A DNA stretch of 64,000 nt from Betaproteobacteria bacterium (GTDB lineage Bacteria; Pseudomonadota; Gammaproteobacteria; Burkholderiales; Burkholderiaceae_C). A program made the translations under genes and the position numbers. This document shows, in pieces, positions 8,325 through 54,523 of the stretch; positions within the stretch are counted from its first letter, which is position 1; every line of letters starts with the position of its first letter. Under the pieces are notes generated by a model. The model worked only from the letters and a program-made list of their open reading frames with translations, did not search any database and was not told where the DNA came from. The stretch spans positions 545,385 through 609,384 of the forward strand of contig JADJWD010000005.1 in assembly GCA_016716535.1 (NCBI GenBank), written 5' to 3'.

Positions 8325-9938
8325 TCAAAACCACCCGTGCACCGACAACTGCGCCCAGCGGCGCCAGTAACGCGCGCCGGAGGTGCCGCTGCTGGCCAGC
8401 CCCAGCGACTGGCCGGAGCCACCTGCGGCGGCGCGCAGGCGCCAGCCGGGGGCGGTGTCCAGGCCGGCGGCGATTTCCCACAAATGCGGCGCGCCGCGGC
8501 TCGCGTTGCCGGCGGTGTCGACCTCACGCGAGCGGGCGAGCCCCGCGCGCGCTTCCAGCGCCCACGGCCGCTGCTCCCAGCTGGCGCCGGCGACGATGCG
8601 CGCCTCGTCATAGCGGCGCGGGTTCCAGTAGCCGCGCGCATCGGCGTTGGCGCCGAGGCTCGTGCGCTCGAGCCGGTGCCACTCGCCGCCGAGGGTGAGG
8701 CGCGGGCGCGTGACGAGCGCCCACTCGGCGCGGCCGAAGAGGCGCTGGCGCGCCGTGCCGTCGTCGAAGCGCAGCCGCGCGGCGCTGCCGGCGAGTGCCA
8801 GCCGCTCGTCGCGGCGCCAGTCCAGGCCGATCGACGTGACATCGACCGTCACGCGGTTGGCGAACGCGCGCGGCGTCTCGATCAGTTCGCGCGAGTGCTC
8901 GGCATCGACGCGCCAGCGGTCGGCAGGGATCCACTTGACGCGCGCCGTCGAGGTGAACGGGTGCCAGCCGCCGACGCTGCCACCGCCGACGCGATGCGTG
9001 CGCAGCACGAGCTGCGGCCACCAGGTGCCGGTGGGCGAATCGGGTTCGCCGAGACGCAGCCGCGCGGCCGCTTCGAACGTGGTTGCCGAAGCGGCGCCGA
9101 AGTCGTCGTCGAGCGCGACGCGCCGGCCGCCGAGCTCGACCGCCGCGCCGGCCAGTGGCTGCATGCCGGCGCCAAGCGACAGCGCCCGCGTGCGCAACGT
9201 GTCGCGGTCCTCGGTCGCCTCGAGCCCGCCGAAGGCGTACGGGGCCACGTCGCGCGCGACGCGCCAGTCGCGCAGCCATTGCGACTCGCTGCCGGTGGCC
9301 TCACGCAGCAGTGGCCAGGCGCGGTCTTCGTAGCCGGCCCAGCGCCAGGCGCGGGCGAGGTCGAGCCGCTCGGCCTCGGTGACGGGCGGCGACCATCGGC
9401 GGAAGACGGCGATCGCGTCGCGGTGGCGGCCGGCGGTGTTCAGCGCCTGCCCGAGCGCCCAGCCGATCGCGCGGTCGTTCGGGTGCAGGCGTGATGCCTC
9501 TTCGAAGAGCGGCAGTGCCGTCGTCGCGTCGGTCGACCACAAGGTCTGCCAGGCGAGCGAGGGCACGATGTCGGCGCGGCGCGCCGGCGCCACGGCGAGC
9601 GCCTGCCGGTACAGCGCCGCGGCGCGCGCGTTGCGGTCGGCCCAGCCGAAGACACGCGCGGCCTCGATCAGCAGGTCGGCGTCGGTGCCGGCGCCTTCGA
9701 CGAGCCGCTCGTACAGCGGCAACGCGGTGGCGAAGTCGCGCCGGTCGGTGGCGGCGCGGGCGCGTGCACGCAGCGTGGCGGGGTCGGGTTCGGTCGTGGC
9801 GGTGTCGCCTTCAGTAGCGCCGGTCGCGCCACCTGCACCGCGGGCTGCGGCACCCGCTTGCGGCGATGCGCTCTGCGCCGCGGCCACCAACGGCCACGCC
9901 GCGAGCATCGCAATGCAAACCGCTGCGAGCCGCCTCAT
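8325..9938 (-). CDS. TPR-repeat plus C-terminal beta-barrel outer-membrane protein (PgaA-like exopolysaccharide porin)
   Basis: Signal peptide MRRLAAVCIAMLAAWPLVAAAQS, TPR-like N-terminal half, and a beta-strand-rich C-terminal half ending in the aromatic OMP signature ...LSVHGWF. The ATG overlaps the GT2 stop (ATGA at 9935-9938). The longer 989-aa ORF is an artefact. Confidence 0.6.
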   Translation of the reverse strand: MRRLAAVCIAMLAAWPLVAAAQSASPQAGAAARGAGGATGATEGDTATTEPDPATLRARARAATDRRDFATALPLYERLVEGAGTDADLLIEAARVFGWADRNARAAALYRQALAVAPARRADIVPSLAWQTLWSTDATTALPLFEEASRLHPNDRAIGWALGQALNTAGRHRDAIAVFRRWSPPVTEAERLDLARAWRWAGYEDRAWPLLREATGSESQWLRDWRVARDVAPYAFGGLEATEDRDTLRTRALSLGAGMQPLAGAAVELGGRRVALDDDFGAASATTFEAAARLRLGEPDSPTGTWWPQLVLRTHRVGGGSVGGWHPFTSTARVKWIPADRWRVDAEHSRELIETPRAFANRVTVDVTSIGLDWRRDERLALAGSAARLRFDDGTARQRLFGRAEWALVTRPRLTLGGEWHRLERTSLGANADARGYWNPRRYDEARIVAGASWEQRPWALEARAGLARSREVDTAGNASRGAPHLWEIAAGLDTAPGWRLRAAAGGSGQSLGLASSGTSGARYWRRWAQLSVHGWF

Positions 9939-11236
9939 GCCGTCTTCCCCGTGCGCGCCGTCTGCCAGCGCACCGGCTGCGCCTTCGGGCGCTTGAACAG
10001 GTACGGCATCGCGATCACCGTCGTCAGCGCCAGCAACGCCCAGTAGACGATCGGGTACCACACCGCATACGGCAGGTAGCGCAGCACCTGCGGGTCGTAG
10101 CGGCGGTCGATGAGCACGCCGGTGGTCAGCTGGGCGATGCACAGCGTCGCGATCGACATGCCCCAGAGGTTCGGGATCGGGCTTGCGCCGATCGGCGGCA
10201 CGCCGGCCAGGTACGACACGGTCCACAGCGTCGTCAGGAACACGAAGCACAGCGACCACAGGATCGACAGCGCCGACTCGACGAACACCGGCCACAGCCG
10301 CCGGCAGTTCCAGGTGGTGAGCACGTCGCGGTGCTTGTGCAGCACCTGCGCGAGGCCGCGCGCCCAGCGCAGGCGCTGGTGGAAGTGGCCGCGGTAGCTC
10401 TGCGGCACCGTCATCCAGCAGATCGCGCGCGGCTCGTAGCGCACGTCGTAGTGGCGCTTTTGCAGCTTCCACGTCAGCTCGATGTCCTCGGTGGGCATGT
10501 TCGGGCTGAAGCCGCCGACGTCGGCCACCGCGCTCTTGCGCAGCGCCGCGACGACGCCCGAGACGGTGACGATGCGGCCCCAGATGCGCTGCGCGCGGCG
10601 CAAGAGGCTGATGATCGAGCTGAACTCCACCGACTGCAGCCGCGCGAGGAAGTTCTTCGTGTTCAGCACGCGCGGGTTGCCGGTGACGGCGGCCACCCGC
10701 GGCGAATCGAAGTGCGGCACGATCCAGTTCAGCAGCTGCGCCTCGGGCTCGGCGTCGGCATCCAGCGCCAGCAGGATTTCGCCGCGCGCCAGCGGCAGCG
10801 CGTCGTTCAAGGCCATCGCCTTGCCTTCGTTGACGTTCTTGCTGACCAGGCGCAGCCGCCGGTCGGCCAGGAGCGGCGCGAGCGCGGCGACCGTGCCGTC
10901 GCGCGAGCCGTCGTCGATGACGAGCACCTCGAAGCGCGGGTAGTCGAGCGCCAGCATCGCGCGCACCGAGCGCGCGATCACCGCCTCCTCGTTGTGTGCC
11001 GGCACGAGCAGCGTGACGAAGGGGCGCTCGCCTGCCTCGCGTCCACCGGCCCCGTGCGCGCCGGCGGCCGCATCGGGCGGCGGCGGGGGTGTCGCGTTCT
11101 CCCAGCGCATGCGGAACAGCAGCGCGGTGATGATCCACATGATGCTGGTGACGATCGGGTAGGCGGCGAAGAAGACCAGCACGATCCAGTACGGCGGCGA
11201 CGACTGGACCGCCAGCAGCAGCGACTCGAGGCTCAT
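9935..11236 (-). CDS. Family-2 processive glycosyltransferase, PgaC/IcaA-like (poly-beta-1,6-GlcNAc synthase type)
   Basis: Motifs VLVIDDGSRDGT, LALDADAEPE, PTEDIELTWKL and QRLRWARG, with flanking TM helices. Confidence 0.8.
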   Translation of the reverse strand: MSLESLLLAVQSSPPYWIVLVFFAAYPIVTSIMWIITALLFRMRWENATPPPPPDAAAGAHGAGGREAGERPFVTLLVPAHNEEAVIARSVRAMLALDYPRFEVLVIDDGSRDGTVAALAPLLADRRLRLVSKNVNEGKAMALNDALPLARGEILLALDADAEPEAQLLNWIVPHFDSPRVAAVTGNPRVLNTKNFLARLQSVEFSSIISLLRRAQRIWGRIVTVSGVVAALRKSAVADVGGFSPNMPTEDIELTWKLQKRHYDVRYEPRAICWMTVPQSYRGHFHQRLRWARGLAQVLHKHRDVLTTWNCRRLWPVFVESALSILWSLCFVFLTTLWTVSYLAGVPPIGASPIPNLWGMSIATLCIAQLTTGVLIDRRYDPQVLRYLPYAVWYPIVYWALLALTTVIAMPYLFKRPKAQPVRWQTARTGKTA

Positions 11237-11682
11237 GAGTGCGCGGCGGGCTCGTCGCCAACGGGGTTTGCCGCGGCCGCGCCCGGGTCGGCACCGTGCG
11301 CCACGTAGCGCTTGTGCTCGCCCTCGACGACGATCAGCACCCGCTGCGCATCGGCCAGCGCCTCGAAGTCGCCGGTCACCGCGCGGCCGTTGAAGTCGAC
11401 CGTGTAGCGCAGCGTCGCCGCCGGCACGGCGCGCCGCGGCCCCTTGCGGCGGTGGATGCCGCGGTTGTGCAGGATCCACGAGACGGTGACGACCGGCACG
11501 ACGACGGCCGCGCCGACGACCAGTGCGCGCAGCGTGTCGAAGTCGGGGTGCCCGGCCAGCACGCGGTGCCAGCCCCAGACGAACAGCGCCCAGCCGGCGA
11601 TGATCGCCAGCACGTGCGCCGCGCGCTGCCAGCCGCCGGGGGCGCTGGCACGCGGCGAGGTCAAGCCCGTGCCGGCGTGCAC
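11233..11682 (-). CDS. Small two-TM inner-membrane protein (PgaD-like role possible)
   Basis: 149 aa with two hydrophobic helices (VLAIIAGWALFVWGW; LVVGAAVVVPVVTVSWIL) followed by a basic patch. Its stop overlaps the GT2 ATG (ATGA at 11233-11236). Confidence 0.45.
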   Translation of the reverse strand: MHAGTGLTSPRASAPGGWQRAAHVLAIIAGWALFVWGWHRVLAGHPDFDTLRALVVGAAVVVPVVTVSWILHNRGIHRRKGPRRAVPAATLRYTVDFNGRAVTGDFEALADAQRVLIVVEGEHKRYVAHGADPGAAAANPVGDEPAAHS

Positions 11683-13895: not shown

Positions 13896-14765
13896 TCAGC
13901 GCGGCGGCGGCGCCGCCTGCCGCGCCTCGTCGAGCAGCGCACGCAGGTGCTGCACCGGTATCGCGTAGGTGATGCCGGTTGGCGCCGACAGCGCCGTCTC
14001 GCGGCTGCCGCGCACGAGCACCATGTTGACGACGCCGATCACCTCGCCGGTGTCGGCGTCGAGCACCGGCCCGCCGCTGTTGCCGGGGTAGGCAGTGGCG
14101 TCGAGTTGCAGCACCTCGAAGTTGCCGGCGCGCAGCCGCGCCAGCGCGCGTGGGTCGAGCTGCGCGGCGGTGGGCGCCGGCAATGCCACGGTGGTGACCG
14201 ACGCGACGATGCCGCGGTGCGTGACCGGCGAGAAGCCGAGCGCGCCGCCGATCGGGTAGCCCATCAGCGCGATCGTCTTGCCTTCTTCCGCACGCCGCGC
14301 GCCGGCCAGCGCCAGCGGCGGCAGCGCCGGGCCATCCAGGCGCAGCAGCGCCACGTCGTGCGCGCGGTCGGTGGACACGAGCGTCGCGAAGCGCACGTCG
14401 CCGGCCTCGCGCCCGGGCGCCGCGTTCTGCGCCAGCACGGCCAGGCGCGCACCGGGCTCGATCTCATTCGGCAGCACGTGCGCATTGGTCGCGACGTGGT
14501 GGCCGTCGCCGACGACAAAACCGCTGCCGCGAAAGCCGAAGCGCGGCGTCGCTGTCGGGCTGTAGGTGCCGACCGGCAGCACCGAAGGCCGCGCGCGCGC
14601 GACGACGGCGCGTAGATCAGGTGTCGGCGTCGAAGCGGCCGCCGCGCCGGCACCCTGCGCCAGCGCGAGCGGCCCATGCGCGACGCCCGCCAGCGCCAGC
14701 ACCGCGGCGCCGAGCAGGCGCAGCGACATGGCCCGCACGTCGCTCACTGCCCGCGCGCCGCTCAC
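13896..14765 (-). CDS. Secreted trypsin-like serine protease (S1C/DegP-like, no PDZ domain seen)
   Basis: Triad contexts TNAHV, DVALLRL and GNSGGPV. Signal peptide MSLRLLGAAVLALAGVAHG (start may be 14729). Lies 5 bp downstream of prsT on the same strand. Confidence 0.8.
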   Translation of the reverse strand: MSGARAVSDVRAMSLRLLGAAVLALAGVAHGPLALAQGAGAAAASTPTPDLRAVVARARPSVLPVGTYSPTATPRFGFRGSGFVVGDGHHVATNAHVLPNEIEPGARLAVLAQNAAPGREAGDVRFATLVSTDRAHDVALLRLDGPALPPLALAGARRAEEGKTIALMGYPIGGALGFSPVTHRGIVASVTTVALPAPTAAQLDPRALARLRAGNFEVLQLDATAYPGNSGGPVLDADTGEVIGVVNMVLVRGSRETALSAPTGITYAIPVQHLRALLDEARQAAPPPR

Positions 14766-21261: not shown

Positions 21262-22644
21262 TCAGCGCGCGCCCTTGCCCGTCAGCACGACGCCGATGGT
21301 CTCGAGCAGGACCACGAGGTCGAGGAAGAGGGTGTGGTTCTTCACGTAGTACAGGTCGAACTGCAGCTTCTCCTGCGAGTCCTCGACCGTCGCGCCGTAG
21401 GCGTAGCGCACCTGCGCCCAGCCGGTGACGCCGGGCTTGACGCTGTGGCGCACGGCGTAGAAGGGGATCTTCTGCGTCAGCTGCTCGACGAAGTACGGCC
21501 GCTCGGGGCGCGGGCCGACGAGGCTCATGTCGCCCTTGAGCACATTGAAGATCTGCGGCAGCTCGTCGATGCGCAGGCGCCGGATGACACGGCCGACGCG
21601 CGTGATGCGGTCGTCGTTGGCGGCGGCCCAGCGCGGCTTGCCGTCCTTCTCGGCGTCGGTGCGCATGCTGCGGAACTTGGTCACCAGGAACGGGCGGCCG
21701 TTCAGGCCCACGCGTTCCTGGCGGTAGAACACCGGACCGCGGCTTTCCAGGCGGATCAGGAGCGCCGTCACGGCCATGATCGGCGCCGCGACGAGGAACA
21801 GCAGCGTTGCGCAGACGATGTCGAACACGCGCTTGACGAACGTGCGCAGCGCGCCCTGGTTGAAGCCGTCGCCGAAGATCAGCCAGCTCGCGCTGAGGTA
21901 GTCGATGCGGATCTGGCCGAGCGTCTTCTCGAAGTGCGTGTTGAGGTCGCAGACCTTGATGCCGCTGAGTTTGCAGTCGAGCAGCTGGCGCAGCGGCATG
22001 CCGCCGGCGCGGCGCTCGGTCAGCGCGACGACGATCTCGTCGACGCCCAGGCAGATGGCCGTCTCGGTCAGCGAGCCGCGGCTCGTCAGCAGGTCGGCCG
22101 CGGGCACGGCGACTTCACTCTCGTTCGGGCCCGGCATGTAGCCGACGATGCGGGCATTGGGGTCCGCGGCGCGCAGCGTGGCGCCGACGACCTGCGCAGC
22201 CTGGCCGGCGCCGAAGATCAGGATGCGCGTGCTGCCGCGCGGCACGGCGACGCGCTGCGACACGAAGATGCGGCGAAGCACGAGCGCCGAGACGCCGGCC
22301 ATCACCGAGAACTGCACCGCCTCGGGGCTGCTGAGCTGCTCGGGCAGCAGGCCGAAGATCGCATAGGCCAGCGGCAGCACCGTGATGAGCACGAAGATGC
22401 CGCGCGCCATCGAGCGCGAAAGCGACAGCGAGTTCTGCGGCTCGTACAGGCCCGAGGCGCTCGTCACGATGAACAGCGCCGCGGCAAACGACATCAACTG
22501 GCCGCCGGCCAGCGGCACGGCCATGTGCAGGCCACCGACCTGGTAGGTGACCACGCCCAGCGCCAGCAGCAGCGCTGCCAACATGTCGAAACACATGCTT
22601 CGAAGCGAAGCACGGTGCACGTAATGTTGAAAGATTCTGATCAT
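21262..22644 (-). CDS. Undecaprenyl-phosphate sugar phosphotransferase (EpsB/WbaP-like, PEP-CTERM-locus type)
   Basis: Starts MIRIFQHYV. Bacterial sugar transferase domain with KFRSMRTDAEKDG and SLVGPRPERP. The upstream part of ORF 21262..22926 was discarded. Confidence 0.85.
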   Translation of the reverse strand: MIRIFQHYVHRASLRSMCFDMLAALLLALGVVTYQVGGLHMAVPLAGGQLMSFAAALFIVTSASGLYEPQNSLSLSRSMARGIFVLITVLPLAYAIFGLLPEQLSSPEAVQFSVMAGVSALVLRRIFVSQRVAVPRGSTRILIFGAGQAAQVVGATLRAADPNARIVGYMPGPNESEVAVPAADLLTSRGSLTETAICLGVDEIVVALTERRAGGMPLRQLLDCKLSGIKVCDLNTHFEKTLGQIRIDYLSASWLIFGDGFNQGALRTFVKRVFDIVCATLLFLVAAPIMAVTALLIRLESRGPVFYRQERVGLNGRPFLVTKFRSMRTDAEKDGKPRWAAANDDRITRVGRVIRRLRIDELPQIFNVLKGDMSLVGPRPERPYFVEQLTQKIPFYAVRHSVKPGVTGWAQVRYAYGATVEDSQEKLQFDLYYVKNHTLFLDLVVLLETIGVVLTGKGAR

Positions 22645-22885
22645 GGATCTTGATCTTCTTGCCGTGCCTTGCCGGCTGTGCTCTGGGCCGATCGTTCTCG
22701 GCGGGCACCCGGGGCGGGGGGGGTGAAGGGCACTGTAAGAACCGCCTTGCGTGCGAGGCAACCCCCGCGGCGCGGGGTCGGGCGACTCGCCAACAGGATC
22801 AGTGAACTGCTGCACGACGGTGCCGACTGCGAATGGGGCCTGGCGGAACGGTGGGGTGATGCCCGGCCGTAAGGCTCGGGCGCAA

Positions 22886-24022
22886 TCAAGGGGGTATTTG
22901 GGTCTTGGCCGCCCCGTTCGCCCCATCCACCCCCGGCTCCACCGACGCCGTCGGCTTCTCGAACCAGCGCCGCCAGAGCTTGCGGGCCAGGTGCGGGATC
23001 AACAGGTGCATCGGCATGCGCAGCCAGTGCGAGCGCACGTACAGCAGCAGCAGCGCCGCTGCGGTGCCCGCCGTGCTGCAGGTGGCGTGCGGCGGGCGCA
23101 ACGCGCGCCGGTAGCACGCGTCCATCAGCCGCAGCACGGCGGCCGAGGGTTGCCCGGGCCGCGCGTTCGCGTGCACGTGCGCCGGCAGCGGCGTGCCGAG
23201 CAGCATCGTCATGTAACGCACGGCGTAGAACCAGGGCCGCGCCAGGCCCAGGCTCGCGGCGCGCCGGCCCGCTTCGGCCAGCCCCGCGGGCGTGGCCAGC
23301 GCCTGCCGCGCCAGTGCGTCCAGGTCGAACAGGTCGCGCAGGCCGTTGTCGAGTTCGCCTTCGTGGAAGAGGTGGCTGGCGCTGTGCAGCAGCAGGCCGA
23401 GCGCATCGAGCGCCAGCACGCCGTCGTGCCCGGGCACCGGCACCGTGCGCTGCATCAGCGCCGCGTTGTCGACGCGCACGCGCGCGGTGTCGGGCAGGAT
23501 CGCGTGGTGCACGTCGATGTGCGTGCCGCGCCGCTCGTGCCGCATCGGCGGCAGCTCGTGCATCCAGCGGCGGTAGTACTCGTCGTCGTAGGCGTCCATC
23601 TCGGCCACGGTCCAGCCGTGCTCGACGAGCGCGCGCTCGACCTCGGCGAGCCGCTCGCGCGGCACGAGGATGTCGACATCGGAAAAGAGCCGCCCGCGGC
23701 CGGCCTCGAGCCCGAGCAGCGTGTACGCGGCGCCTTTCAGCAGCACCACCGGCACCGCGGGCGGAACGGCCTCGCGGATGCAGCGCACCTCCCAGTCGAC
23801 CATCGCCCGCTGCCGCTCGGCGACGAGGTCGGCCGCCAGCAGGTGCATCGCGGCGTCGGCCGGTACGTGGTCGCGCTGCCTGCTGCCTTCCAGCACGTGC
23901 GCCAGCCGCGCGATGAGGTTCGCAGCGCGCGCCTGGCGGATCGCCAGCTCCCAGTCGAGCGGGCTCAGCGACGCGGCCGTGGCCGGGCGCAGCAGCAGCG
24001 AGACGATGAGGGGCGTGTTCAT
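22886..24022 (-). CDS. Uncharacterised nucleotidyltransferase-family protein (PF14907-like)
   Basis: LFSDVDILVPRE and HIDVHHAILPD motifs typical of minimal nucleotidyltransferase folds. The ATG overlaps the stop of the kinase-like gene (ATGA at 24019-24022). Confidence 0.6.
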   Translation of the reverse strand: MNTPLIVSLLLRPATAASLSPLDWELAIRQARAANLIARLAHVLEGSRQRDHVPADAAMHLLAADLVAERQRAMVDWEVRCIREAVPPAVPVVLLKGAAYTLLGLEAGRGRLFSDVDILVPRERLAEVERALVEHGWTVAEMDAYDDEYYRRWMHELPPMRHERRGTHIDVHHAILPDTARVRVDNAALMQRTVPVPGHDGVLALDALGLLLHSASHLFHEGELDNGLRDLFDLDALARQALATPAGLAEAGRRAASLGLARPWFYAVRYMTMLLGTPLPAHVHANARPGQPSAAVLRLMDACYRRALRPPHATCSTAGTAAALLLLYVRSHWLRMPMHLLIPHLARKLWRRWFEKPTASVEPGVDGANGAAKTQIPP

Positions 24023-24945
24023 CGTTCGGTTTTCACCGTTTGCGGCGCCAGCGCGTCGAGCAACGCGACCGCCGCATCCAGGTCGCCATGCACGAGGCGA
24101 AAACACTCGGCCTCTCCGACCAGCCGCGCGAGGCCGCTGAAACCGGCCGCGCCGTGCACGTTGTAGTTGTACGCCTGTTCGGTGACCTCCATGAAGCACT
24201 CGGTGCGGGCGATGGGGGAGAGCGTCGTCGCCTCGCCGGCGCCGTAGCGCGGCAGCACGATCCAGCCGGGCCGCGCGGCCTCGCACACGCGGCTCACCGC
24301 CTCGGCGGGCGGACACATCAACGACAGCGTCCCCTTCGCCGTGCCGGCGATCGAGCGGCTGAACCGCGCCTCGGGCGCGAAGCGGCTGATCAGTTCGACC
24401 GACTGGTTCTTCAGGTTCACCGGCCGCGCCATGCCGGACACGGTGCCGGTGCGCAGATCGCACAACGCCAGTTCGTCCGACAAGAGCCGCCAGCCGCGGT
24501 GCGCCAGCGCAGCGCACAGCGTGCTCTTGCCCGAGCCGGGCGGGGCGGGCAGGATCAGCGCGCGGCCGTCTCGCTCGACGACCGCGGCGTGCAGGATCAG
24601 GTACTGGTGCGCGTGCGCGACGACGCACCAGTTCAGGCCCCACTCGAGCATTACCGGCGCATGGTCCTGCGGCAGCGGCAGGAAGGCCTCGCGGCCGTCG
24701 ACCGAGAAACGCGCCTGCGGCTTCAGCCAGCCGCGCACGCCGCTCACGCGGCGCACCTCGACCCGGAAATCCGAGAACCGGTCGGGCGGCAGCACGCCGA
24801 AGTCGCGGTAGAGGAAGTGCAGCGCCTCGGCCACCTGCGGCAGGTCGGACGTGACGCGCACGACAAAAGGCGGCGTGGCCAGCAGCAACTCGCCACGCGC
24901 GAGCAGCCGGCGCAGCGCCGGCGCCTCGAGGTCCGCCAGCCTCAC
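24019..24945 (-). CDS. HPr kinase-related protein (HprK-related kinase A type)
   Basis: P-loop ILPAPPGSGKSTLCAALA in an HprK C-terminal-domain-like context. The GTG start overlaps the stop of the PqqD-like gene (GTGA at 24942-24945). Confidence 0.7.
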   Translation of the reverse strand: MRLADLEAPALRRLLARGELLLATPPFVVRVTSDLPQVAEALHFLYRDFGVLPPDRFSDFRVEVRRVSGVRGWLKPQARFSVDGREAFLPLPQDHAPVMLEWGLNWCVVAHAHQYLILHAAVVERDGRALILPAPPGSGKSTLCAALAHRGWRLLSDELALCDLRTGTVSGMARPVNLKNQSVELISRFAPEARFSRSIAGTAKGTLSLMCPPAEAVSRVCEAARPGWIVLPRYGAGEATTLSPIARTECFMEVTEQAYNYNVHGAAGFSGLARLVGEAECFRLVHGDLDAAVALLDALAPQTVKTER

Positions 24946-25244
24946 TGCTGCGGCCCTTGGACGAGGTGCAGCGACTGGAGCACGCGCAGCGCGTGCGCCA
25001 CCCGGTGGCGGCCGTCGTGGGCGTGCCAGGCTTCGTCGAGGTCGAACAGGCCCGCCACCAGCTCGTCGAAGGTGCATGGCCGCTCGGCGACCATCAGGTA
25101 GAGCTCGAAGCTCAGCGGGTCGAGCCGATGTGTGTCGCCCGAGGCACTGTCGAAGACGATGCCATCGTCGGCGCACGGCCAGCTGGCCGACAAAGTGCCC
25201 GGCCGCGCGCGCCAGAGCGCCGTTTCAGCCCCGAGGTGCGTCAA
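24942..25244 (-). CDS. PqqD-family (RRE-like) small protein
   Basis: About 100 aa with a PqqD-like core DDGIVFDSASGDTHRLDPLSFELYLMVAERPCTFDELVAGL. The TTG start at 25244 is inferred and is the first start after the upstream stop at 25268. Confidence 0.55.
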   Translation of the reverse strand: MTHLGAETALWRARPGTLSASWPCADDGIVFDSASGDTHRLDPLSFELYLMVAERPCTFDELVAGLFDLDEAWHAHDGRHRVAHALRVLQSLHLVQGPQQ

Positions 25245-25267
25245 GGCGCGGCATCGAACCCGCTGGG

Positions 25268-26017
25268 TCAGACCGCCAGGTAGCTGGCGCTCAGGTACGT
25301 CTTGATGTCGGCAGCATCCCAGGCGACCGACCGGCCGGGCGGCTTGTACGCGGTGCCGAGCTTGGCCATCTGGTCGAGTTGATCCGGCCCGGTGTAGGAG
25401 GTCGGATTGAGGCACTGGTTCATGACCTGCTGGTGGAACGTCTCGGCGTACTTGCGATTGAGTCCCGCGATCAGGAGGTAGTCGGCGAGGGAAGAGACGC
25501 CGTTGGAAATGAGGCTCCAGCACTTCGTACTGCCAGCGCAGCCGACCAGGCCGTTCGGGAACACCGCCGCGACGGTCAGCGTGTTCTTCGCGTACTCCGA
25601 TTGCTCATAGTTCGAGTAGCTGCCGCCACCCGGCTTGGAGCGACTCCGAAGCTGGTCGCCGACGAACATCCAAGGCTGCTTCTGGTACCGCGCCGGGCCG
25701 CCCGTCCGGCCGGAGTTGTTCTGCCAGTTCGTGATGTACCAGCACTCGTCGCCGTTGATGCGCGTCGTGCCGACGTTGCGCTCGAGCCGGTTGTAGACGC
25801 TCGTGCCGGCGGCGACGCCGTCGGCGCGCTGCGAACCCCAGGCCGAGGTGGTGTAGCAATGCCAGGCCATCACCGGGCGGCTGGTCAGCGTCAGGCCGAC
25901 CGGCACCGAGCCCGCGCCCAGGCGGATGAAGCGCCGGCGGCGCTCGCGCTGCAAACGTGCCTGCTCGGCGAGATCCGGGGTGGGCGTCGCGTTGTTCTGG
26001 TTGAGCTTGTCGTCCAT
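25268..26017 (-). CDS. Hypothetical exported protein with a Tat-like signal; no family recognised
   Basis: 249 aa. The twin-arginine stretch RERRRRFIRLGAGSVPVGLTLTSRPVMA is followed by a Cys-, Asn-, Gly- and Tyr-containing mature region. Codon usage is visibly less GC-biased than in neighbours. Confidence 0.5.
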   Translation of the reverse strand: MDDKLNQNNATPTPDLAEQARLQRERRRRFIRLGAGSVPVGLTLTSRPVMAWHCYTTSAWGSQRADGVAAGTSVYNRLERNVGTTRINGDECWYITNWQNNSGRTGGPARYQKQPWMFVGDQLRSRSKPGGGSYSNYEQSEYAKNTLTVAAVFPNGLVGCAGSTKCWSLISNGVSSLADYLLIAGLNRKYAETFHQQVMNQCLNPTSYTGPDQLDQMAKLGTAYKPPGRSVAWDAADIKTYLSASYLAV

Positions 26018-26444
26018 CTCGAGCCCCTGAGGCGCCGGCTTCGGACCGGCTGAGATCCGTGGTGTCGTCGGTTTCTTGTGTGAATCTAGCAAGGCGTGCG
26101 GCGGATGCACAGGCAGCTTCGCACGCTCGGCCCGGGCCGGGCGGCAGCATCGCCACCGCCCCAGGCACACTCGGCGGCATTCTCGCCGAAGGCGGCTTCG
26201 CACACCGGATCGCCGCATCCCCGGATCGGGGGTCGCGGCGCGCCTGCCGGCGCCCGATCTGGTACGAACGTTTGCATCCATCGGCAACATCGCACACTGC
26301 TTCGGGCGCCGCGCAATGGCGCCGTGAAATCTCCGCGCTCGGGCGCCGGGCCGGTTGGATGGCCCGACCGGCGCGCCTTGCCCGCATGAGAACATCACTG
26401 TAAGGTCGCGTCCCGCCACGCATTTCCCCCTGTAGGAGAACAAG

Positions 26445-27107
26445 TTGTCGAAGCCAATCACACCGGCGCGGGCCACGAGCGTCGGGTCGGGCCCGGCCCT
26501 GCGGCGCGCGGGCTTGGCGCTGCTCGCTTTGGGTTTCTCGATCCTCACCGGCTGCGGCAGCCTGAGCAACCTGCCGCCGGCCCCGGCGGCGGCCACGGCG
26601 GCCGACTACAGCTACGTCATCGGCGCCGGCGACTCGCTGTCGATCATCGTCTGGCGCAACCCGGAGATTTCGCTGTCGGTGCCGGTGCGGCCCGACGGCA
26701 AGATCTCGGCGCCGCTGGTCGACGAACTCGTCGTCCAGGGCAAGACCTCCACCGCGGTGGCGCGCGATATCGAAAAGCAGCTCGCGCGCTTCGTGCGCGA
26801 CCCGGTCGTCACGGTCATCGTCACCAGCTTCGTCGGCCCGTTCAGCGAGCAGATCCGCGTGGTCGGCGAGGCGGCCAAGCCGCAGTTCCTGCCCTTCCGC
26901 CAGAAGATGACGATGCTGGACGTGATGATCGCCGTCGGCGGCCTCACCGACTTCGCCGACGGCAACGGCGCCACCATCGTGCGCACCTCCGAGGGCAACA
27001 AGCAGTACTCGGTGCGGCTGAAGGACCTCGTGCGCCGCGGCGACGTCTCGGCCAACGTCGAGATGCGCCCGGGCGACATCCTCATCATCCCGCAGAGCTT
27101 CTTCTGA
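26445..27107 (+). CDS. Polysaccharide export protein (Wza-like, PEP-CTERM-locus EpsE type)
   Basis: Lipoprotein-like signal (ILTGCGS) and Poly_export/SLBB-type sequence YVIGAGDSLSIIVWRNPE...VRPDGKIS. TTG start preceded by AGGAG at 26434-26438. Confidence 0.85.
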   Translation: MSKPITPARATSVGSGPALRRAGLALLALGFSILTGCGSLSNLPPAPAAATAADYSYVIGAGDSLSIIVWRNPEISLSVPVRPDGKISAPLVDELVVQGKTSTAVARDIEKQLARFVRDPVVTVIVTSFVGPFSEQIRVVGEAAKPQFLPFRQKMTMLDVMIAVGGLTDFADGNGATIVRTSEGNKQYSVRLKDLVRRGDVSANVEMRPGDILIIPQSFF

Positions 27108-34986: not shown

Positions 34987-36302
34987 ATGGCCCGCATCCT
35001 GTTCCTGCCGCACCGCCTGCCCTTTCCGCCGGACAAGGGCGACAAGATCCGCTCGTACCACCTGCTCGAGCACCTCGCGGCGCGCCACGAGGTGACGCTG
35101 GCCACCTTCGTCGACGACCCGGCCGACGAGGCGCACCTGCCGGCCGTGCGCGCGCGTTGCGCCGAGGCCGCTTCGCCGGCTGAGCCGACGCGCGGCCGCT
35201 GCGCAGCCTGGCGGCGCTGCCGACGGCCGCGCCGATGACACTCGGCTACTACCGCGACGAGGGCCTGCGCCGCCAGGTGCAGGCGTTCGCCGGGCAACGG
35301 CGCTTCGACGCGACGCTCGTGTTCTCGTCGTCGATGGTGCCGTATGCCCGCGCCGCGCAGGCGGCTCAGGCCGCCCAGGCGCCCGCCCACCTGCCGATGC
35401 TGCTCGACCTCGTCGACGTCGACTCGGCCAAGTGGGCGGCCTACGCCGAGCGCCGCCCGTGGCCGCTGTCGTGGCCGCTGGCGCGCGAAGGGCGCACGCT
35501 GCTCGCCTACGAGCGCCAGGCGGTGATGCAGGCGAGCGCGTCGTTCCTTTGCACCGAGCAGGAGCGTGACCTCTTCCATCACCTCGCGCCCGAGTGCGCC
35601 GGCCGCGTCGACGTGATGCGCAACGGCGTCGACGCCGCCTTCTACAGCCCCGACCCGGCGCGGGCCTCGCCCTACGCGCCCGGCGAGAAGACGGTCGTCT
35701 TCACCGGCGCGATGGACTACTGGCCCAACGTCGACGCCGTCGTCTGGTTCGCGCGCGAGATGCTCGCGCCGCTGCGCGAGCGGGTGCCCGGCGTGCGCTT
35801 CTGCATCGTCGGCCGCAGCCCGGCGCCGGCGGTGCGCCAGCTGGCCGCCGACACCGTCGTCGTCACCGGCACGGTGGCCGACGTGCGGCCGTATCTGCAG
35901 CACGCCACCGCGGTGGTGGCGCCGCTGCGCGTGGCGCGCGGCATCCAGAACAAGATCCTCGAGGCGATGGCGATGGGCCGGCCGGTCGTCACCGCGCGCT
36001 CCTGCGCCGCCGCGCTCGATGGTGCCGCGGCCCTGGATGGCGAAGTGCCGCCGCTGCTGACCGCCGACGACGCGCCCGGCTACGTCGCCGCGCTCGAGCG
36101 CCTGCTCACCGACCCGGCGCACGCCGCCGCCATCGGCGAAGCAGGCCGCCGCCTCGTGCTCGCGGCCTACTCGTGGGCCGGCAGCCTGCGCGTGCTCGAC
36201 GAGCGGCTCGCCGAGGCGATGCAGCCGCGCGCCGAGCCCCGCCGGGCCGCGCCGCGCGGCGTGGCCGCCGCGCCCACCCCCGCCACGGTGCACGAGGCAT
36301 GA
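34987..36302 (+). pseudogene. Glycosyltransferase (GT-B, PEP-CTERM/EpsH1-system associated type); interrupted by a 1-nt deletion
   Basis: The conserved N-terminus [27 protein letters not shown] is in one frame. The rest (...[20 protein letters not shown] onward) is in the frame opening at 35184. The shift must lie at about 35184-35199. Total length is 1316 nt. Confidence 0.75.
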
Positions 36303-37888
36303 GCAGCGGCTCGATGCCCGAAGCCGCCCTGGCGCCGCGCCCCGCAGGGCTGGCTGCGCTGGCGCCCTGGGCGCCCGCCCTCGCGGCGGCGGCGCTCGTG
36401 CTGGCGCTGTTCGGCGACACGTTCGCCTCGATGGTCGCCATCTGGTGGCGCTCGGACACCTACACACACGCCTTCCTCGTGCCGCCGATCGCGCTGTGGC
36501 TGATCTGGCGGCAGCGCGACCGCCTCGACCTTTCGGCCGCGCGCCCGGCGCCGCTGTGGCTGGTGCCGATGGCCGCGGCCTGCGTGCTGTGGCTGCTCGG
36601 CCACCTCGCCGGCGTCGCCGCAGCCACCCACCTGGCCGCGGTGGCGCTGCTCGTCATGGTGGTGCCGGCCGTGCTCGGCCACGCGGTGGCGCGGCAGCTC
36701 GCCTTCCCGCTGTCCTTCCTGCTCTTCGCGGTGCCGGTCGGCGACTTCCTCGTCGAGCCGATGATGCAGGGCACCGCCGACTTCACGGTGCAGGCGCTGC
36801 GCCTGAGCGGCATCCCGGTCTACCGCGAGGGGCTGCAGTTCGTGATCCCCACCGGCAACTGGTCGGTGGTGGAAGCGTGCAGCGGCGTGCGCTACCTCAT
36901 CGCGTCGTTCATGGTCGGCACGCTCTTCGCGTACCTGAACTTCCGCTCGCTCGCCGGCCGGCTCGTCTTCATGGCCGTCTCGCTGGCGGTGCCGGTGGTG
37001 GCCAACTGGCTGCGCGCCTACCTCATCGTGCTGCTCGGCCACGTCTCGGGCAACAAGCTCGCCGCCGGCGCCGACCACCTCATCTACGGCTGGGTGTTCT
37101 TCGGCGTCGTCATCTTCATCATGTTCGCGATCGGCGCGCGGTTCGCGAGCCGCGAGCCCGAAGTGGCCGCGCCGGCTACGGCGGCCAAGCTCGCCGCCGC
37201 GGGCGCCCGCAACGACCGGCGCGCGCCGTGGTTGAGCACCCTCGCCGTGGCGGCGCTGCTCGTCGCCTTCAACCTCGTCGCCTGGCGGCTGGACCAGCCG
37301 GCCAGCTCGACGCCGCAGCTGGCCCTGCCCGACCGCCTGCAAGGCGACTGGGCGCTCGCCGACCCCAACCTGACCACCTGGGCACCGCGCTTCGACAAGC
37401 CGAGCGTCGTGGCCACCGGCACCTACCGCCGCGGCGACGCCGCCGTCGGCGTCTGGCTCGGCCACTACCGCAACCAGGGCGCCGAGCGCAAGCTGATCAC
37501 CTCCACCAACGTCCTCGTGCCTGGCGGCTCGGCCGAGTGGCTGCCGATTGCCGCGCCGGCGCAGGGCGTCCGCCTGGCCGGCAGCGACAGCACAATCACG
37601 CTGCGCGCGACGCTGCTGCGCACGCCGGCCGACCCGAAGGTCGAACCGCGCCAGCGCCTGCGGGTGCTGCAGACCTACCGCATCGGCGGCACGTTCGTCG
37701 GCGGCGACGCGCAAGGCAAGATCCGGCTCGCGCTGCAGCGGCTGCTGGGCCGCGGCGACGACGGCACCGTGCTGCTGCTGTACGCCGAGGTCGACGAGTC
37801 CGCGGCCGGCGCCGCGCTGCTCGAGGACTTCGCCGCGAAGAACCTGCCGGCCCTGGCCGCCGCGGCCGACCAGGCCGCCCGCCGCTGA
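36299..37888 (+). CDS. xrtA: Exosortase A (XrtA) fused to an EpsI-family domain
   Basis: Multi-TM N-terminal half carries exosortase catalytic contexts VVEACSGVRYL and ANWLRAYLIVLLGH. After a further TM helix there is an about-200-aa periplasmic EpsI-like half. The ATG overlaps the upstream GT stop (ATGA at 36299-36302). Confidence 0.85.
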   Translation: MSSGSMPEAALAPRPAGLAALAPWAPALAAAALVLALFGDTFASMVAIWWRSDTYTHAFLVPPIALWLIWRQRDRLDLSAARPAPLWLVPMAAACVLWLLGHLAGVAAATHLAAVALLVMVVPAVLGHAVARQLAFPLSFLLFAVPVGDFLVEPMMQGTADFTVQALRLSGIPVYREGLQFVIPTGNWSVVEACSGVRYLIASFMVGTLFAYLNFRSLAGRLVFMAVSLAVPVVANWLRAYLIVLLGHVSGNKLAAGADHLIYGWVFFGVVIFIMFAIGARFASREPEVAAPATAAKLAAAGARNDRRAPWLSTLAVAALLVAFNLVAWRLDQPASSTPQLALPDRLQGDWALADPNLTTWAPRFDKPSVVATGTYRRGDAAVGVWLGHYRNQGAERKLITSTNVLVPGGSAEWLPIAAPAQGVRLAGSDSTITLRATLLRTPADPKVEPRQRLRVLQTYRIGGTFVGGDAQGKIRLALQRLLGRGDDGTVLLLYAEVDESAAGAALLEDFAAKNLPALAAAADQAARR

Positions 37889-40569: not shown

Positions 40570-42524
40570 ATGTGCGGAATCACCGGCATCTTCGACACCC
40601 GCGACAAGCGCCCCATCGCCCAGGCGGCGCTGGCGCGCATGAACGACGCGCAGCACCACCGCGGCCCCGACGAGGGCAGCGTGCACGTCGAGCCGGGCCT
40701 CGGCTTCGGGCACCGGCGGCTTTCGATCATCGACGTGGCCACCGGCCAGCAGCCGCTGTTCAATGAAGACGGCAGCGTCTGCATCGTCTTCAACGGCGAG
40801 ATCTACAACTACCAGGACCTGATCCCCGAGCTGAAGGCGCTCGGCCACGTCTTCCACACCAAGAGCGACACCGAGTGCATCGTCCACGCCTGGGAGGCGT
40901 GGGGCGAGAAGTGCGTCGAGCGCCTGCGCGGCATGTTCGCCTTCGCGCTGTGGGACCGCAACCGGCAGACGCTGTTCATGGCGCGCGACCGGCTCGGCGT
41001 GAAGCCGCTGTTCTATTCGGTGCTCGACGACGGCATGCTGCTCTTCGGCAGCGAGCTGAAGTCGGTGCTCACGCATGGCGGCATGCGGCGCGACGTCGAC
41101 CCGCTGGCCATCGAGGAGTACTTCGCGCTCGGCTACGTCGCCGAGCCGCGCACGATCTTCAAGCAGGCGAAGAAGCTCGCGCCCGGCCATACGCTCACCT
41201 GGCGGCGCGGCGAGCCCGAGCCCGCGCCGCGGCCCTACTGGGACGTGCGCTTCACGCTCGCCAACCCGATCAGCGCCGAGGACGCCTGCGAAGAGCTGCG
41301 CGCGCGGCTCGCCGAATCGGTGCGCCTGCGCATGATCTCCGAGGTGCCGCTCGGCGCCTTCCTCTCCGGCGGCGTCGATTCGAGCGCCGTCGTCGCGACG
41401 ATGGCGGGCCTGTCGGACCAGCCGGTGCGCACCTGCTCGATCGCCTTCGACGACCCGCAGTTCAACGAGTCGCAGTTCGCGCAGATCGTCGCCGAGCGCT
41501 ACCGCACCGACCACCACGTCGAGACGGTCAAGAGCGACGACTTCGACCTCATCGACACGCTCGCGCACCTGTACGACGAGCCCTACGCCGACAGCTCGGC
41601 GATCCCCACCTACCGCGTCTGCCAGCTCGCGCGCAAGCGCGTCACGGTGGCGCTGTCGGGCGACGGCGGCGACGAGAGCTTCGGCGGCTACCGCCGCTAC
41701 CTGATGCACCTGATGGAAGAGCGCATGCGCACGGCGTTGCCCTACGGGCTGCGCCGGCCGCTGTTCGGCGCGCTCGGCCGCCTGTACCCGAAGGCCGACT
41801 GGGCGCCGCGCATGTTCCGCGCCAAGACCACCTTCGAGGGCATGGCGCGCACGTCGGTCGAGGCCTACTTCCACTCGGTGAGCATCCTGCGCGGGCCGAT
41901 GCGCCGGCAGCTCTTCAGCGCCGCGCTGAAGCGCGAGCTCGGCGGCTACGACGCGCGCGCCGTCTTCGACCGCCACGCCGCCAACGCGCAGACCGACGAC
42001 CCGCTGGCGCTGATCCAGTACCTCGACCTGAAGACCTACCTCGTCGGCGACATCAACACCAAGGTCGACCGCGCCAGCATGGCGCACTCGCTCGAGGTGC
42101 GCGAGCCGCTGATGGACCACCCGCTCGTCGAGTGGCTGGCTTCGCTGCCCTCGAACCTGAAGGTGCGCGGCAACGAAGGCAAGTTCCTGCTGAAGAAGGC
42201 GATGGAGCCGGCGCTGCCGACGACATCCTCTACCGCCCGAAGATGGGCTTCGCGGTGCCGCTGGCGCGCTGGTTCCGCGGCCCGCTGCGCCAGCGTGTGC
42301 GCGAGTCGGTGCTCGGCGAGCGGCTGCTTTCGACCGGCTGGTTCGACGAGGGTTATCTGCGCCACCTGGTCGAAGCGCATCAGAACGGCACGCGCGACTA
42401 CAGCGCGCCGCTGTGGACGCTGTTGATGTTCGAGGCGTTCCTGCGCCAGGGCGTCGAGCAGCGCGTGATGCCGCAGGCGGCGGTGCCGACGGGCAGCGTG
42501 GCCAAGGCCGAGGCCATGGCCTGA
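40570..42524 (+). pseudogene. Asparagine synthase (glutamine-hydrolysing) homologue, exosortase A-associated amidotransferase type; interrupted by a 1-nt deletion
   Basis: MCGITGIF class-II amidotransferase Cys and the PP-loop SGGVDSS. The frame changes at about 42216-42219: ...KKAMEPALP in frame A, then DDILYRPKMGFAVPLARWFRG in frame B. Total length is 1955 nt. Confidence 0.85.
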
Positions 42525-43819: not shown

Positions 43820-45034
43820 ATGGACCGCCCGATCCGATCGCTGCTGTTCTCGACGCTGTATCCCAGCAGCGCGCGGCCGATTCACGGCATCTTCGTCGAG
43901 ACGCGCCTGCGCGAACTGCTGCAGACAGGCGGCATCGAGACGCGCGTCGTCGCGCCGGTGCCCTGGTTTCCGTCGACGAACCCGCGCTGGGGCGAATGGG
44001 CCCGCATGGCCAGCACGCCGGTGCAGGAGGTCCACAACGGCATCGAAGTGCATCACCCGCGCTACCCGCTGCCGCCCAAGTTGGGCATGACGATGGCGCC
44101 GCTGCTCATCGCCTTGGCCGCGGCGCCGGTGCTGCGCCGGCTGAGGCGTTCGGGCTTCGACTTCGACGTCATCGACGCGCACTACTACTACCCCGACGGC
44201 GTGGCGGCGGCGCTGCTGGCGAAATGGTTCGATCGGCCGGTGACGATCACGGCGCGAGGCACCGACCTCAATCTGATTCCCCAATACACGTTGCCCCGGC
44301 GAATGATTCAGTGGGCGGCCGGGCAGGCGCATGCCTCGATCGGCGTCAGCTCGGCACTGGTGGATGTCTTGCGCGGCTTGGGCCTTCCCGAAGAACGCTT
44401 GCACGTCATGCGCAACGGCGTGGACCTGCAACGGTTCCGGCCGGTGCCTCAACGCGAGGCGCGCGCGATGCTTGGCATCGCAGGCTCAGGGCCGCTGCTG
44501 CTGTCGGTGGGGCACCTCGTCGAGCTGAAGGGCCATCACCTCGTGATCGAAGCGTTGACGCGCTTGTTGCCGCATCACCCGGAAGCTCGGCTCGCCATCG
44601 TTGGTGCCGGTGAGGAGCGCGACCGTTTGATGGAACTGGCCCGCGCGCGGAACCTGAGCGAACGAGTCATCTTCGCCGGGCAGCAGCCTAACGATCGCTT
44701 GCAGACGTGGTACTCGGCAGCCGATGCACTGGTACTGGCCTCCAGCCGCGAAGGCTGGGCCAACGTCCTGCTCGAAGCCATGGCGTGTGGAACGCCCGTG
44801 GTCGCCACGGAAACGGGGGGCACGCCGGAAGTGGTGAGCCCGCAGGTCGGCGTGCTCGTGAGCCGTGACGCGGCGTCACTCGCGGCCGGTGTAGCCCGCC
44901 TGCTGGCAAACACTCCGAAACGCGCTGAAGTGCGCGCCTACGCCGAGACCTTCAGTTGGCGTGCCACGAGTGAGGCCCAGCTGCGGTTGTTCGGCCGTAT
45001 TGCGCATCAGAGAAGCGGCCTCTGCCATGCGTGA
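43820..45034 (+). CDS. Glycosyltransferase family 4
   Basis: LLFSTLYPSSARPIHGIFVETR N-terminus and a GT1 C-terminal motif REGWANVLLEAMACGTPVVATE. Confidence 0.75.
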   Translation: MDRPIRSLLFSTLYPSSARPIHGIFVETRLRELLQTGGIETRVVAPVPWFPSTNPRWGEWARMASTPVQEVHNGIEVHHPRYPLPPKLGMTMAPLLIALAAAPVLRRLRRSGFDFDVIDAHYYYPDGVAAALLAKWFDRPVTITARGTDLNLIPQYTLPRRMIQWAAGQAHASIGVSSALVDVLRGLGLPEERLHVMRNGVDLQRFRPVPQREARAMLGIAGSGPLLLSVGHLVELKGHHLVIEALTRLLPHHPEARLAIVGAGEERDRLMELARARNLSERVIFAGQQPNDRLQTWYSAADALVLASSREGWANVLLEAMACGTPVVATETGGTPEVVSPQVGVLVSRDAASLAAGVARLLANTPKRAEVRAYAETFSWRATSEAQLRLFGRIAHQRSGLCHA

Positions 45035-46337: not shown

Positions 46338-46342
46338 GCACT

Positions 46343-47296: not shown

Positions 47297-47405
47297 CTGT
47301 TGATCATCGTGAGGAAACGCAGGGCTGCGGGCGATGATCGTTTGGCGTGTGAAGCACGCCGTAATTTGGATGACAGGTTCGGCATTTAGTTGGAAGGTTC
47401 TCCGT

Positions 47406-48134: not shown

Positions 48135-48212
48135 CTTTTCGGGTTTTGGGCGGTTCCGCTTGCTGGTTACACTTTGCATTGACGCGGCCCAGAAGAGGGA
48201 GACGAGGACGCG

Positions 48213-49601: not shown

Positions 49602-49682
49602 GTACCGGGCGCGCTCGTCGTGACCGGCATCGCCGCACGCAGGCAACGCTGTCCTAGTCTTGAGTTGGCCAAAATTCTTGAG

Positions 49683-51559: not shown

Positions 51560-51657
51560 CGTGACTCGTGGACGCGGCGTGGCAGACTGTCTGGAAGCCG
51601 ATCGCGGAGCTTATCGAAGCTCGCCCACCCCAGCCATCGCCGAAGGGCTGAACTACT

Positions 51658-53124: not shown

Positions 53125-53172
53125 CCTTGCTCCCGCACTCGGCTCACGCCGGCCCGCTCCGCACGCGGCACG

Positions 53173-54459: not shown

Positions 54460-54523
54460 GATGAACCGGGCCGCCTGCGATGGATATCGATGAGCGAACC
54501 TATCCTTCCGCGATGCGTTGCCT

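Follow-up and report, generated by a model that had tools for sequence, protein, structure and literature searches.

The window analysed in this study, a 64,000-nucleotide stretch of the genome of a Betaproteobacteria bacterium (GenBank assembly GCA_016716535.1, contig JADJWD010000005.1, forward-strand positions 545,385 to 609,384), carries a widespread four-gene cassette whose first member, gene X, encodes an uncharacterised protein of 249 amino acids. X is followed by genes for a small PqqD-like protein, an HprK-related kinase A and a nucleotidyltransferase (NTase) of family PF14907. An initial annotation made from the sequence had described the latter three as a module with no obvious short precursor. 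This claim did not survive: X, whose stop lies 24 nt upstream of the PqqD-like start, falls just outside the module as then delimited, is present at 78 of the 80 loci compared and displays leader-like features. The constant companionship of X turns an orphan enzyme triad into an enzyme-substrate system that is open to test, and the X product, as the obvious candidate, is probably the substrate. Quite possibly, and we propose this tentatively, the purpose of the cassette is to modify the product of its own first gene, which would then be exported by the twin-arginine translocation (Tat) pathway.

The arrangement was compared at 80 loci from different GTDB species, nearly all of them Betaproteobacteria, which represent the best-scoring of at least 553 HprK_rel_A relatives. 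The NTase gene directly follows the kinase gene at all 80 loci, and a PqqD-like open reading frame (ORF) precedes the kinase gene at 77, in most cases with a 4-nt stop/start overlap. An X homologue lies directly upstream of the PqqD-like gene at 78 loci; these homologues were found with an iterative profile seeded with X and run over 15,115 six-frame ORFs, among which it matched solely at this position. The two loci without X comprise one that is truncated and one (L066) that genuinely has neither X nor PqqD upstream of the kinase gene. Moreover, two distant X homologues, reached independently via the protein database, again precede genes for PqqD, ScmC (PF27840) and NTP_transf_5 proteins. Carriers of the cassette include Rubrivivax gelatinosus and Rhodoferax ferrireducens T118. 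Such an arrangement is far beyond chance, and the functional unit is a widespread four-gene cassette with X in first place. The kinase family is large, with more than 7,700 clusters at 90% identity scored and relatives in at least 553 GTDB species.

All four genes are encoded on the minus strand, in the order X (25268-26017), the PqqD-like gene of the RRE type (24942-25244, approximately 100 amino acids), the HprK-related kinase A gene (24019-24945; 308 amino acids, PF27840 'ScmC' family) and the gene for the PF14907 (NTP_transf_5) nucleotidyltransferase-fold protein (22886-24022; 378 amino acids). As the initial annotation had reported, the three enzyme genes are chained by 4-nt overlaps. Read on the minus strand, GTGA at 24945-24942 joins the PqqD-like stop to the GTG start of the kinase, while ATGA at 24022-24019 joins the kinase stop to the ATG start of the NTase, and the three genes are predicted to be translationally coupled. 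A TTG start at 25244 is plausible for the PqqD-like gene; a second in-frame TTG occurs 17 codons downstream. Two database proteins, P0001 (the 308-amino-acid kinase) and P0121 (the 249-amino-acid X protein, labelled 'hypothetical protein'), equal those of the window in length and sequence; they come from a Rubrivivax-like metagenome-assembled genome of the Betaproteobacteria. No promoter-like site or convincing terminator was found inside the cassette, and searches around it for riboswitches or other RNAs, sigma-70 promoters and terminators gave nothing credible. A sigma-54 promoter upstream of X, which would have placed the cassette under co-regulation with PEP-CTERM genes by PrsR, was considered and rejected: the pattern TGGCAC-N5-TTGC, with up to 2 mismatches allowed, has no match in 26018-26444, and its matches in the window are fewer than in shuffled sequence. 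In this window, with a G+C content of approximately 72%, third-position G+C (GC3) in the cassette (22886-26017) lies below that of its neighbours, at 0.82 in the kinase frame and 0.85 in the X frame versus 0.89-0.96 in the flanking XrtA genes. It is likewise lower in the cassettes of three other loci (L060, with 0.60-0.65 versus 0.88, L046 and L052), which hints at a different expression level or at horizontal mobility.

The X protein consists, in order, of a variable polar N-terminus, a twin-arginine segment, a conserved motif, a variable linker and a C-terminal domain. It has no match in Pfam, NCBIfam or PADLOC, and an exhaustive profile search retrieved 5093 family representatives at E <= 1e-3, of which 2074 reach E <= 1e-10, mostly of 170-290 amino acids; named members are called hypothetical, except that a single source names one 'Tat pathway signal protein'. 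In the twin-arginine signal-like segment (residues 26-51, RRRRFIRLGAGSVPVGLTLTSRPVMA; 25865-25942, minus strand), the twin-arginine motif leads into a stretch of moderate hydrophobicity and then a basic c-region (ERRRRFIRLGAGSVPVGLTLTSRPVMA), and the segment fits the Tat pattern of R-R-x-F-[LI], a moderately hydrophobic h-region, a basic c-region and an A-x-A-type cleavage site. Directly after the predicted cleavage site, WHC opens the motif WHCYTTSAWGS (residues 52-62; 25832-25864, minus strand), which has the pattern C-x3-S-x3-S and is often extended in the family as SGNxS. R27 and R28 never vary and F30 hardly does; R29, G34, T43, L44, S46 and P48 are either invariant or close to it, and in distant members C54, S58 and S62 show no change or are conserved to at least 90%. 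Even among members with only about 20% overall identity, R27, R28, P48, C54, S58 and S62 remain unchanged. Information content reaches 2.77 bits per column in the signal-like segment and 2.36 in the motif, with 0.87 in the linker and 1.17 in the C-terminal domain, so that the signal-like segment and the motif behind it are the most conserved parts of the protein. A signal peptide more conserved than the mature protein is unusual and suggests that the N-terminus of X, conserved beyond what a signal peptide needs, is read by something besides the translocase.

Structure prediction of X with AlphaFold2 gave residues 25-88 as disordered (predicted local distance difference test, pLDDT, below 50) and residues 89-249 (25271-25753, minus strand) as a helical globular domain with values mostly above 90. 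Lying in predicted disorder, the C-x3-S-x3-S motif should be accessible to enzymes. A Foldseek search of the globular domain against the PDB returned no match (best E-value 4.5), and neither Foldseek nor family scans revealed a recognisable cofactor-binding fold or motif in it. The same domain occurs six times in tandem in P0242, a protein of 808 amino acids with no informative Pfam match, in which each copy is bracketed by cysteines (C..GFW...VAALLNA...CP) and the twin-arginine N-terminus is lacking; this occurrence in tandem without the N-terminal segment marks the domain as an autonomous module. It is probably extracytoplasmic. The C-terminus of X (...YLSASYLAV) carries neither a PEP motif nor a transmembrane segment.

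The three enzymes retain the features expected of their families. The kinase scores 379.8 bits against TIGR04352 HprK_rel_A (cut-off 200), and its homologues bear a precomputed PF27840 (ScmC) assignment. The Walker A P-loop PAPPGSGKST (residues 133-142; 24520-24549, minus strand) and the segment G151-W-R-L-L-S-D-E-L159 (GWRLLSDEL) are invariant across 20 homologues. The best match of the kinase-homologue profile among PDB sequences is HprK/P 1jb1 (E = 0.011), with an alignment that covers the P-loop (GDSGVGKSE in HprK/P) and the LIADD/LLSDE acidic segment. In the AlphaFold2 model (mean pLDDT 92.4), Foldseek ranks ATP-dependent phosphoenolpyruvate carboxykinase (PEPCK) first (E ~1e-6), followed by HprK/P (E ~3e-3); as modelled, the kinase belongs within the PEPCK/HprK P-loop kinase superfamily. 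The NTase scores 154 bits against PF14907 NTP_transf_5 (cut-off 31.2), with 248 of 249 model positions aligned, and found no match among PDB sequences. K96, G97, A99, D115, D117, D170, H172 and H173 are conserved in at least 95% of 79 homologues, and K96-G97-x-A99, D115-x-D117 and D170-x-H172-H173 make up the expected catalytic signature, in which the putative metal-binding motif D115-V-D117 is encoded at 23672-23680 (minus strand). A role for the NTase in anti-phage defence or in a toxin-antitoxin pair was rejected, as none of the four cassette proteins has a PADLOC match.

The PqqD-like protein of the window scores 33.2 bits (E = 7e-8) against TIGR04353, the 'HPr-rel-A system PqqD family peptide chaperone', for which the cut-off is 35, and does not match Pfam PqqD (PF05402). 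Its positional homologues match TIGR04353 in 26 of 26 cases (best E = 5e-21), PF05402 in nine and the RRE domain NGO1945_C in 12, and the PqqD assignment may be regarded as secure at the level of the family. Against PDB sequences, the corresponding profile gave only weak MarR/ArsR winged-helix matches and designed repeat proteins. None of the three enzymes contains a strongly hydrophobic 19-residue segment (the maximum Kyte-Doolittle average does not exceed 1.48, with the working threshold set at 1.6), which fits with action in the cytoplasm, and with their catalytic motifs intact they look active. The motifs quoted in the initial annotation (PAPPGSGKSTLCAALA in the kinase, SDVDILVPRE and HIDVHH in the NTase) are all present, and the family searches that it had proposed bear out its assignments, with the kinase and the NTase above their cut-offs and the PqqD-like protein placed by its homologues.

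The genomic setting described in the initial annotation was likewise recovered. The XrtA-system priming sugar transferase lies downstream of the cassette (21262-22653, minus strand; TIGR03013, 512.8 bits), and the XrtA-system polysaccharide export protein is encoded by the first gene of the divergent operon (26445-27107, plus strand; TIGR03027, 235.2 bits); taken together, the surroundings constitute a complete XrtA/PEP-CTERM exopolysaccharide locus. Across the sample, XrtA-system markers, identified by tblastn with the window proteins under identity and coverage thresholds, occur within 10 kb of the kinase gene at 42 of the 80 loci (34 of the 55 full-length loci), and at the other 38 the cassette has no such marker within that distance. 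By our own estimate, chance would place it this near an XrtA locus in about 1-2% of genomes. The junctions vary: the NTase gene is followed by EpsB2-PrsK-PrsR-PrsT in the window, PrsK-PrsR-PrsT or the export gene leads into X elsewhere, and further loci have the NTase gene leading into the export operon or a convergent PrsT gene. This variety points to a repeated or maintained association rather than to a single inherited synteny. At five other loci examined (L001, L029, L035, L052 and L083), the neighbours are housekeeping or unrelated genes such as prmC, ntrBC, purD, trmJ and those for cyclic di-GMP enzymes or an ABC transporter. The link to XrtA is thus a strong enrichment and not a dependency, and the cassette is an autonomous module that, though often recruited to XrtA loci, forms no obligatory component of the sorting system. 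In the neighbourhood census that the initial annotation had called for, the idea that the triad always travels with xrtA failed and its association with XrtA loci stood, while the co-varying fourth gene turned out to be X. A cassette that is found among housekeeping genes as well should encode its own substrate.

A possible additional partner is a PDZ-less Trypsin_2 serine protease, encoded beside PrsT in the window (13896-14765, minus strand; PF13365, 97.9 bits). At 21 of the 80 loci, orthologues with 44-61% identity directly adjoin X on its upstream side or the NTase gene on its downstream side (L005, L014, L015, L016, L018-L020, L023, L025, L028, L038, L042, L048, L053, L056, L057, L063, L067, L072, L073 and L080), among which L057 has no XrtA marker, and they are also found beside the cassette at L081:12109-12894 and L084:5869-6675. 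This protease may be a facultative fifth partner, for instance in periplasmic processing of X.

Several known systems offer points of comparison. The initial annotation had invoked lasso peptide clusters, and the literature does contain this precedent of an HprK-like kinase acting with an uncharacterised nucleoside triphosphate (NTP)-transferase (PMC6993621). The HprK-family kinase PsmK phosphorylates a serine of the lasso precursor PsmA, and the uncharacterised NTP-transferase PsmN is required if the phosphate placed by PsmK is to receive one or two hexoses, a D-x-D double mutant of PsmN being inactive (PMC6993621; PMC11912497). Like PsmK/PsmN of Bacillus pseudomycoides, and PadeK of paeninodin, the cassette has an HprK-family P-loop kinase and an NTP-transferase-fold protein with a D-x-D motif, and PqqD-like (B1/RRE) proteins are present in lasso clusters too (PMC6993621). 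Unlike these clusters, however, it has no lasso cyclase, leader protease or ABC exporter. Its candidate substrate is a protein of about 200-250 amino acids with a twin-arginine signal and a folded domain instead of a peptide of about 40 amino acids, and the proposed acceptor lies near the N-terminus, whereas that of the lasso peptides is a C-terminal serine. No asparagine-synthetase-like lasso cyclase, leader peptidase or short precursor was found in the cassette of the window or at L081, L083, L084 and L085, and the window cassette has no radical-SAM partner either, in agreement with the initial annotation. The only asparagine-synthetase homologue in the window (40570-42426) is the XrtA-system amidotransferase, which matches TIGR03108 above its cut-off. 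The cassette is not a lasso cluster; by analogy, its mode of action may be that of the tailoring half of such a cluster, directed at a protein exported by Tat.

In the NCBIfam catalogue, the window kinase is a full member of the 'HPr-rel-A system', and the pairing of TIGR04352 with TIGR04353 is the catalogued one, while X is covered by neither model. As the initial annotation had stated, this pairing is catalogued by name without a function, and literature searches found no paper on the HPr-rel-A system and none that assigns a function to the cassette; its genes are also unmentioned in the founding PEP-CTERM paper (Haft 2006) and in the floc-genetics paper on Aquincola, a related organism. With HprK/P and ATP-dependent PEPCK, the kinase shares the P-loop superfamily, a Walker A motif and acidic segment that align with those of HprK/P, and a predicted two-domain fold. 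It differs from them in that identity is only 10-16%, there is no HPr or phosphotransferase-system context, and its N-terminal domain differs from that of HprK/P. Maturation of ribosomally synthesised peptides with post-translational modifications (RiPPs) through an RRE, as in PqqD/PqqA/PqqE and lasso B1, likewise features a stand-alone PqqD-type domain encoded beside the enzymes and after a putative substrate gene, and X would resemble RiPP precursors in having a conserved, recognition-like N-terminal segment followed by a candidate modified region, although it is a protein of 170-290 amino acids in the family and has a folded domain. Unlike in those systems, the 'leader' here is similar to a Tat signal, the product would be a whole exported protein, and there is no radical SAM, YcaO or cyclase partner. 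A Tat proofreading chaperone binds the twin-arginine signal of its client until maturation in the cytoplasm is complete. The likeness of the cassette to such chaperones of the TorD, DmsD and NapD type is one of concept only, that of a small cytoplasmic protein on a twin-arginine signal; the PqqD-like protein has no sequence or fold relation to them, and its binding to the signal is presumed. The new elements are X and its signal-like leader, while RRE-associated modification of a ribosomal product is of an already known kind.

A peptide- or protein-directed phosphorylation or nucleotidylylation system, as put forward in general terms in the initial annotation, is still the best general reading of the cassette. 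In the specific account that we tentatively prefer, X would be made in the cytoplasm with its twin-arginine signal-like N-terminus and with C-x3-S-x3-S directly past the predicted cleavage site. The PqqD-like protein, with its RRE-type peptide-binding domain, would dock on the conserved signal or leader segment and hold X for the enzymes, in a manner akin to an RRE on a RiPP leader or to a Tat proofreading chaperone on a signal peptide. The P-loop kinase would then phosphorylate a conserved serine, S58 or S62, and the NTase would elaborate the serine phosphate from a nucleotide substrate, yielding a linked nucleotide or, on the model of PsmN, a phosphodiester-linked sugar; C54, S58 and S62 are the candidate acceptor residues. 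The modified and folded X would be exported via Tat, and outside the cytoplasm it would act in or near the XrtA/PEP-CTERM exopolysaccharide system wherever the cassette is embedded there. A Tat-type signal makes sense for a protein that needs NTP-dependent tailoring in the cytoplasm. Several observations weigh against this account. In the lasso systems, the acceptor is a C-terminal serine and the kinase reads the leader itself, whereas the site proposed here lies near the N-terminus of a 200-amino-acid protein, and PsmN may belong to a family other than PF14907. The conservation of the N-terminus of X could stem from another constraint, and its assignment to the Tat pathway relies on a sequence pattern alone. 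The kinase model lies nearer to PEPCK, a small-molecule kinase, than to HprK/P, which makes a non-protein substrate possible. The 80 loci are a top-scoring and almost wholly betaproteobacterial subset, and among them one clear exception exists: in a Nitrosomonadaceae metagenome-assembled genome (L066:7886-8869), the kinase and NTase genes have neither X nor PqqD upstream, where ruvX, a yqgE-like gene and a pyrR-like gene stand instead.

Extensions and alternatives differ mainly in what is taken to be modified. It is conceivable, if unlikely, that the Tat signal of X doubles as a RiPP-style leader for the PqqD-like protein and that the group placed on the serine, once X is exported, covalently joins it to the XrtA-dependent polysaccharide or makes X the ligand of PrsK. 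In such a joint scheme the serine would, with equally low probability, become a nucleotide-activated or phosphodiester-linked group in the cytoplasm; that the orphan sensor kinase PrsK would then perceive X, either whole or as a fragment cut by the often-adjacent trypsin-like protease, seems just as doubtful. Similarly improbable, in our judgement, is a role in Tat cofactor insertion and proofreading, with the kinase and NTase building or attaching a nucleotide-derived prosthetic group that X requires and the PqqD-like protein acting mainly as a signal-peptide chaperone that delays export until loading is finished, without RiPP-style recognition for serine phosphorylation. That idea draws on the invariant twin-arginine motif and over-conserved signal region, on a kinase fold nearest to PEPCK, on the usual employment of Tat for proteins finished in the cytoplasm, and on the fact that small alcohols are usually activated as nucleoside diphosphate derivatives by a kinase and then an NTase. 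It sits poorly with a C-terminal domain in which no cofactor-binding fold or motif can be recognised and with conserved residues that cluster in a disordered N-terminal segment and form no pocket, and the known functions of PqqD-type domains all consist in presenting a peptide to modifying enzymes. The PEPCK-like fold also speaks for small-molecule or glycan chemistry, in which the kinase and NTase would phosphorylate and nucleotide-activate a sugar, a lipid-linked intermediate or an exopolysaccharide substituent while X and the PqqD-like protein served as accessory or regulatory factors. The position of the window cassette inside an exopolysaccharide locus and the markers near 42 of the 80 loci agree with this, as does the occurrence of PF14907 proteins beside non-peptide pathways, for example in phosphonate clusters (PMC8942020). 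We nevertheless rate it as rather improbable: no XrtA marker occurs within 10 kb at about half of the loci, those five that were examined have housekeeping neighbours, both a PqqD/RRE partner and an exported protein are strictly co-conserved with the enzymes, and the characterised relatives HprK/P and PsmK act on proteins or peptides.

The specific proposal of the initial annotation made some component or cargo of the PEP-CTERM/exosortase pathway the target of the triad; PEP-CTERM proteins, PrsT or XrtA might be named as examples, X then being unrelated. The embedding of the triad in the XrtA locus of the window and its enrichment, through many kinds of junction, beside prsK/prsR/prsT and export genes lend this some appeal. 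It fared badly in the comparison and now appears distinctly improbable, as X has no PEP-CTERM domain, a regular-expression search found no PEP-CTERM ORF in the window, 38 of the 80 loci lack any XrtA marker within 10 kb, and X is co-conserved more tightly (78 of 80) than any XrtA gene (at most 42 of 80). Very improbable indeed is a cross-link, in which S58 or S62 would be phosphorylated or nucleotidylylated and undergo beta-elimination before C54 or a second conserved cysteine adds to form a lanthionine-like thioether, resembling the kinase-lyase chemistry of class III/IV lanthipeptides. An invariant cysteine does lie four and eight residues from invariant serines, and kinase-initiated dehydration is established in lanthipeptides; yet the cassette has no lyase or cyclase homologue, no role of an NTase in such chemistry is known, and the conserved cysteine could equally form a periplasmic disulfide.

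Should modification of X by its own cassette prove true, the reach of RRE-guided tailoring would widen from small peptides to entire secreted proteins, and there would be a reason for Tat targeting besides cofactor insertion. A phospho- or nucleotidyl-modified protein would also be added to the poorly understood XrtA/PEP-CTERM machinery by which Betaproteobacteria of wastewater and soil form flocs and biofilms. If the Tat signal did double as a leader, the cassettes would represent an extensive class, so far unrecognised, of Tat-exported proteins that are tailored after translation.

Other genes near the cassette were also considered. A pssA-like gene after the NTase gene was rejected as a functional partner: this gene for a CDP-alcohol phosphatidyltransferase follows the cassette at L001:12030-12647 and at 15 other Roseateles/Paucibacter-type loci, which makes 16 loci of one clade with 78-85% identity, and is also found at L083:12407-13024. 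The cassette genes are much less conserved than the pssA-like gene, and the adjacency is probably a clade-specific inherited synteny with a housekeeping gene. The CDP-alcohol chemistry of its product parallels the activation by a kinase and then an NTase that is proposed for the cassette. In the window, PrsT, PrsR, PrsK and the TIGR03013 priming transferase are encoded downstream of the cassette on the same strand. The divergent operon encodes the export protein, a chain-length determinant, a tyrosine kinase, an outer-membrane protein, an ATPase and a deacetylase, followed by a FemAB protein, stp1, an XrtA-EpsI fusion, stp2, the amidotransferase, stp3 and an O-ligase. The fusion, XrtA with an EpsI-family C-terminal domain, lies in a long ORF at 35594-37888 (plus strand), in which residues 263-518 match TIGR03109 and residues 583-756 match TIGR02914; its true start is probably near 36380, giving a gene of approximately 36380-37888. 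Beyond about 44 kb, G+C falls from approximately 0.72 to 0.59-0.65. Three large ORFs of the region 44000-64000 (55375-57786, 57895-58827 and 59844-61733) lack an NCBIfam match, while its other genes encode two MOP flippases, FkbM methyltransferases and KpsF and include a Kdo-transferase-like one; the region gives the impression of a variable section of the locus, devoted to glycan tailoring and possibly acquired. A PgaC/IcaA-like GT2 synthase is encoded upstream of the XrtA regulatory genes (9935-11479, minus strand); its score of 395.9 bits stays under the cut-off of TIGR03937, which is 422, and it hints at a neighbouring second polysaccharide system.

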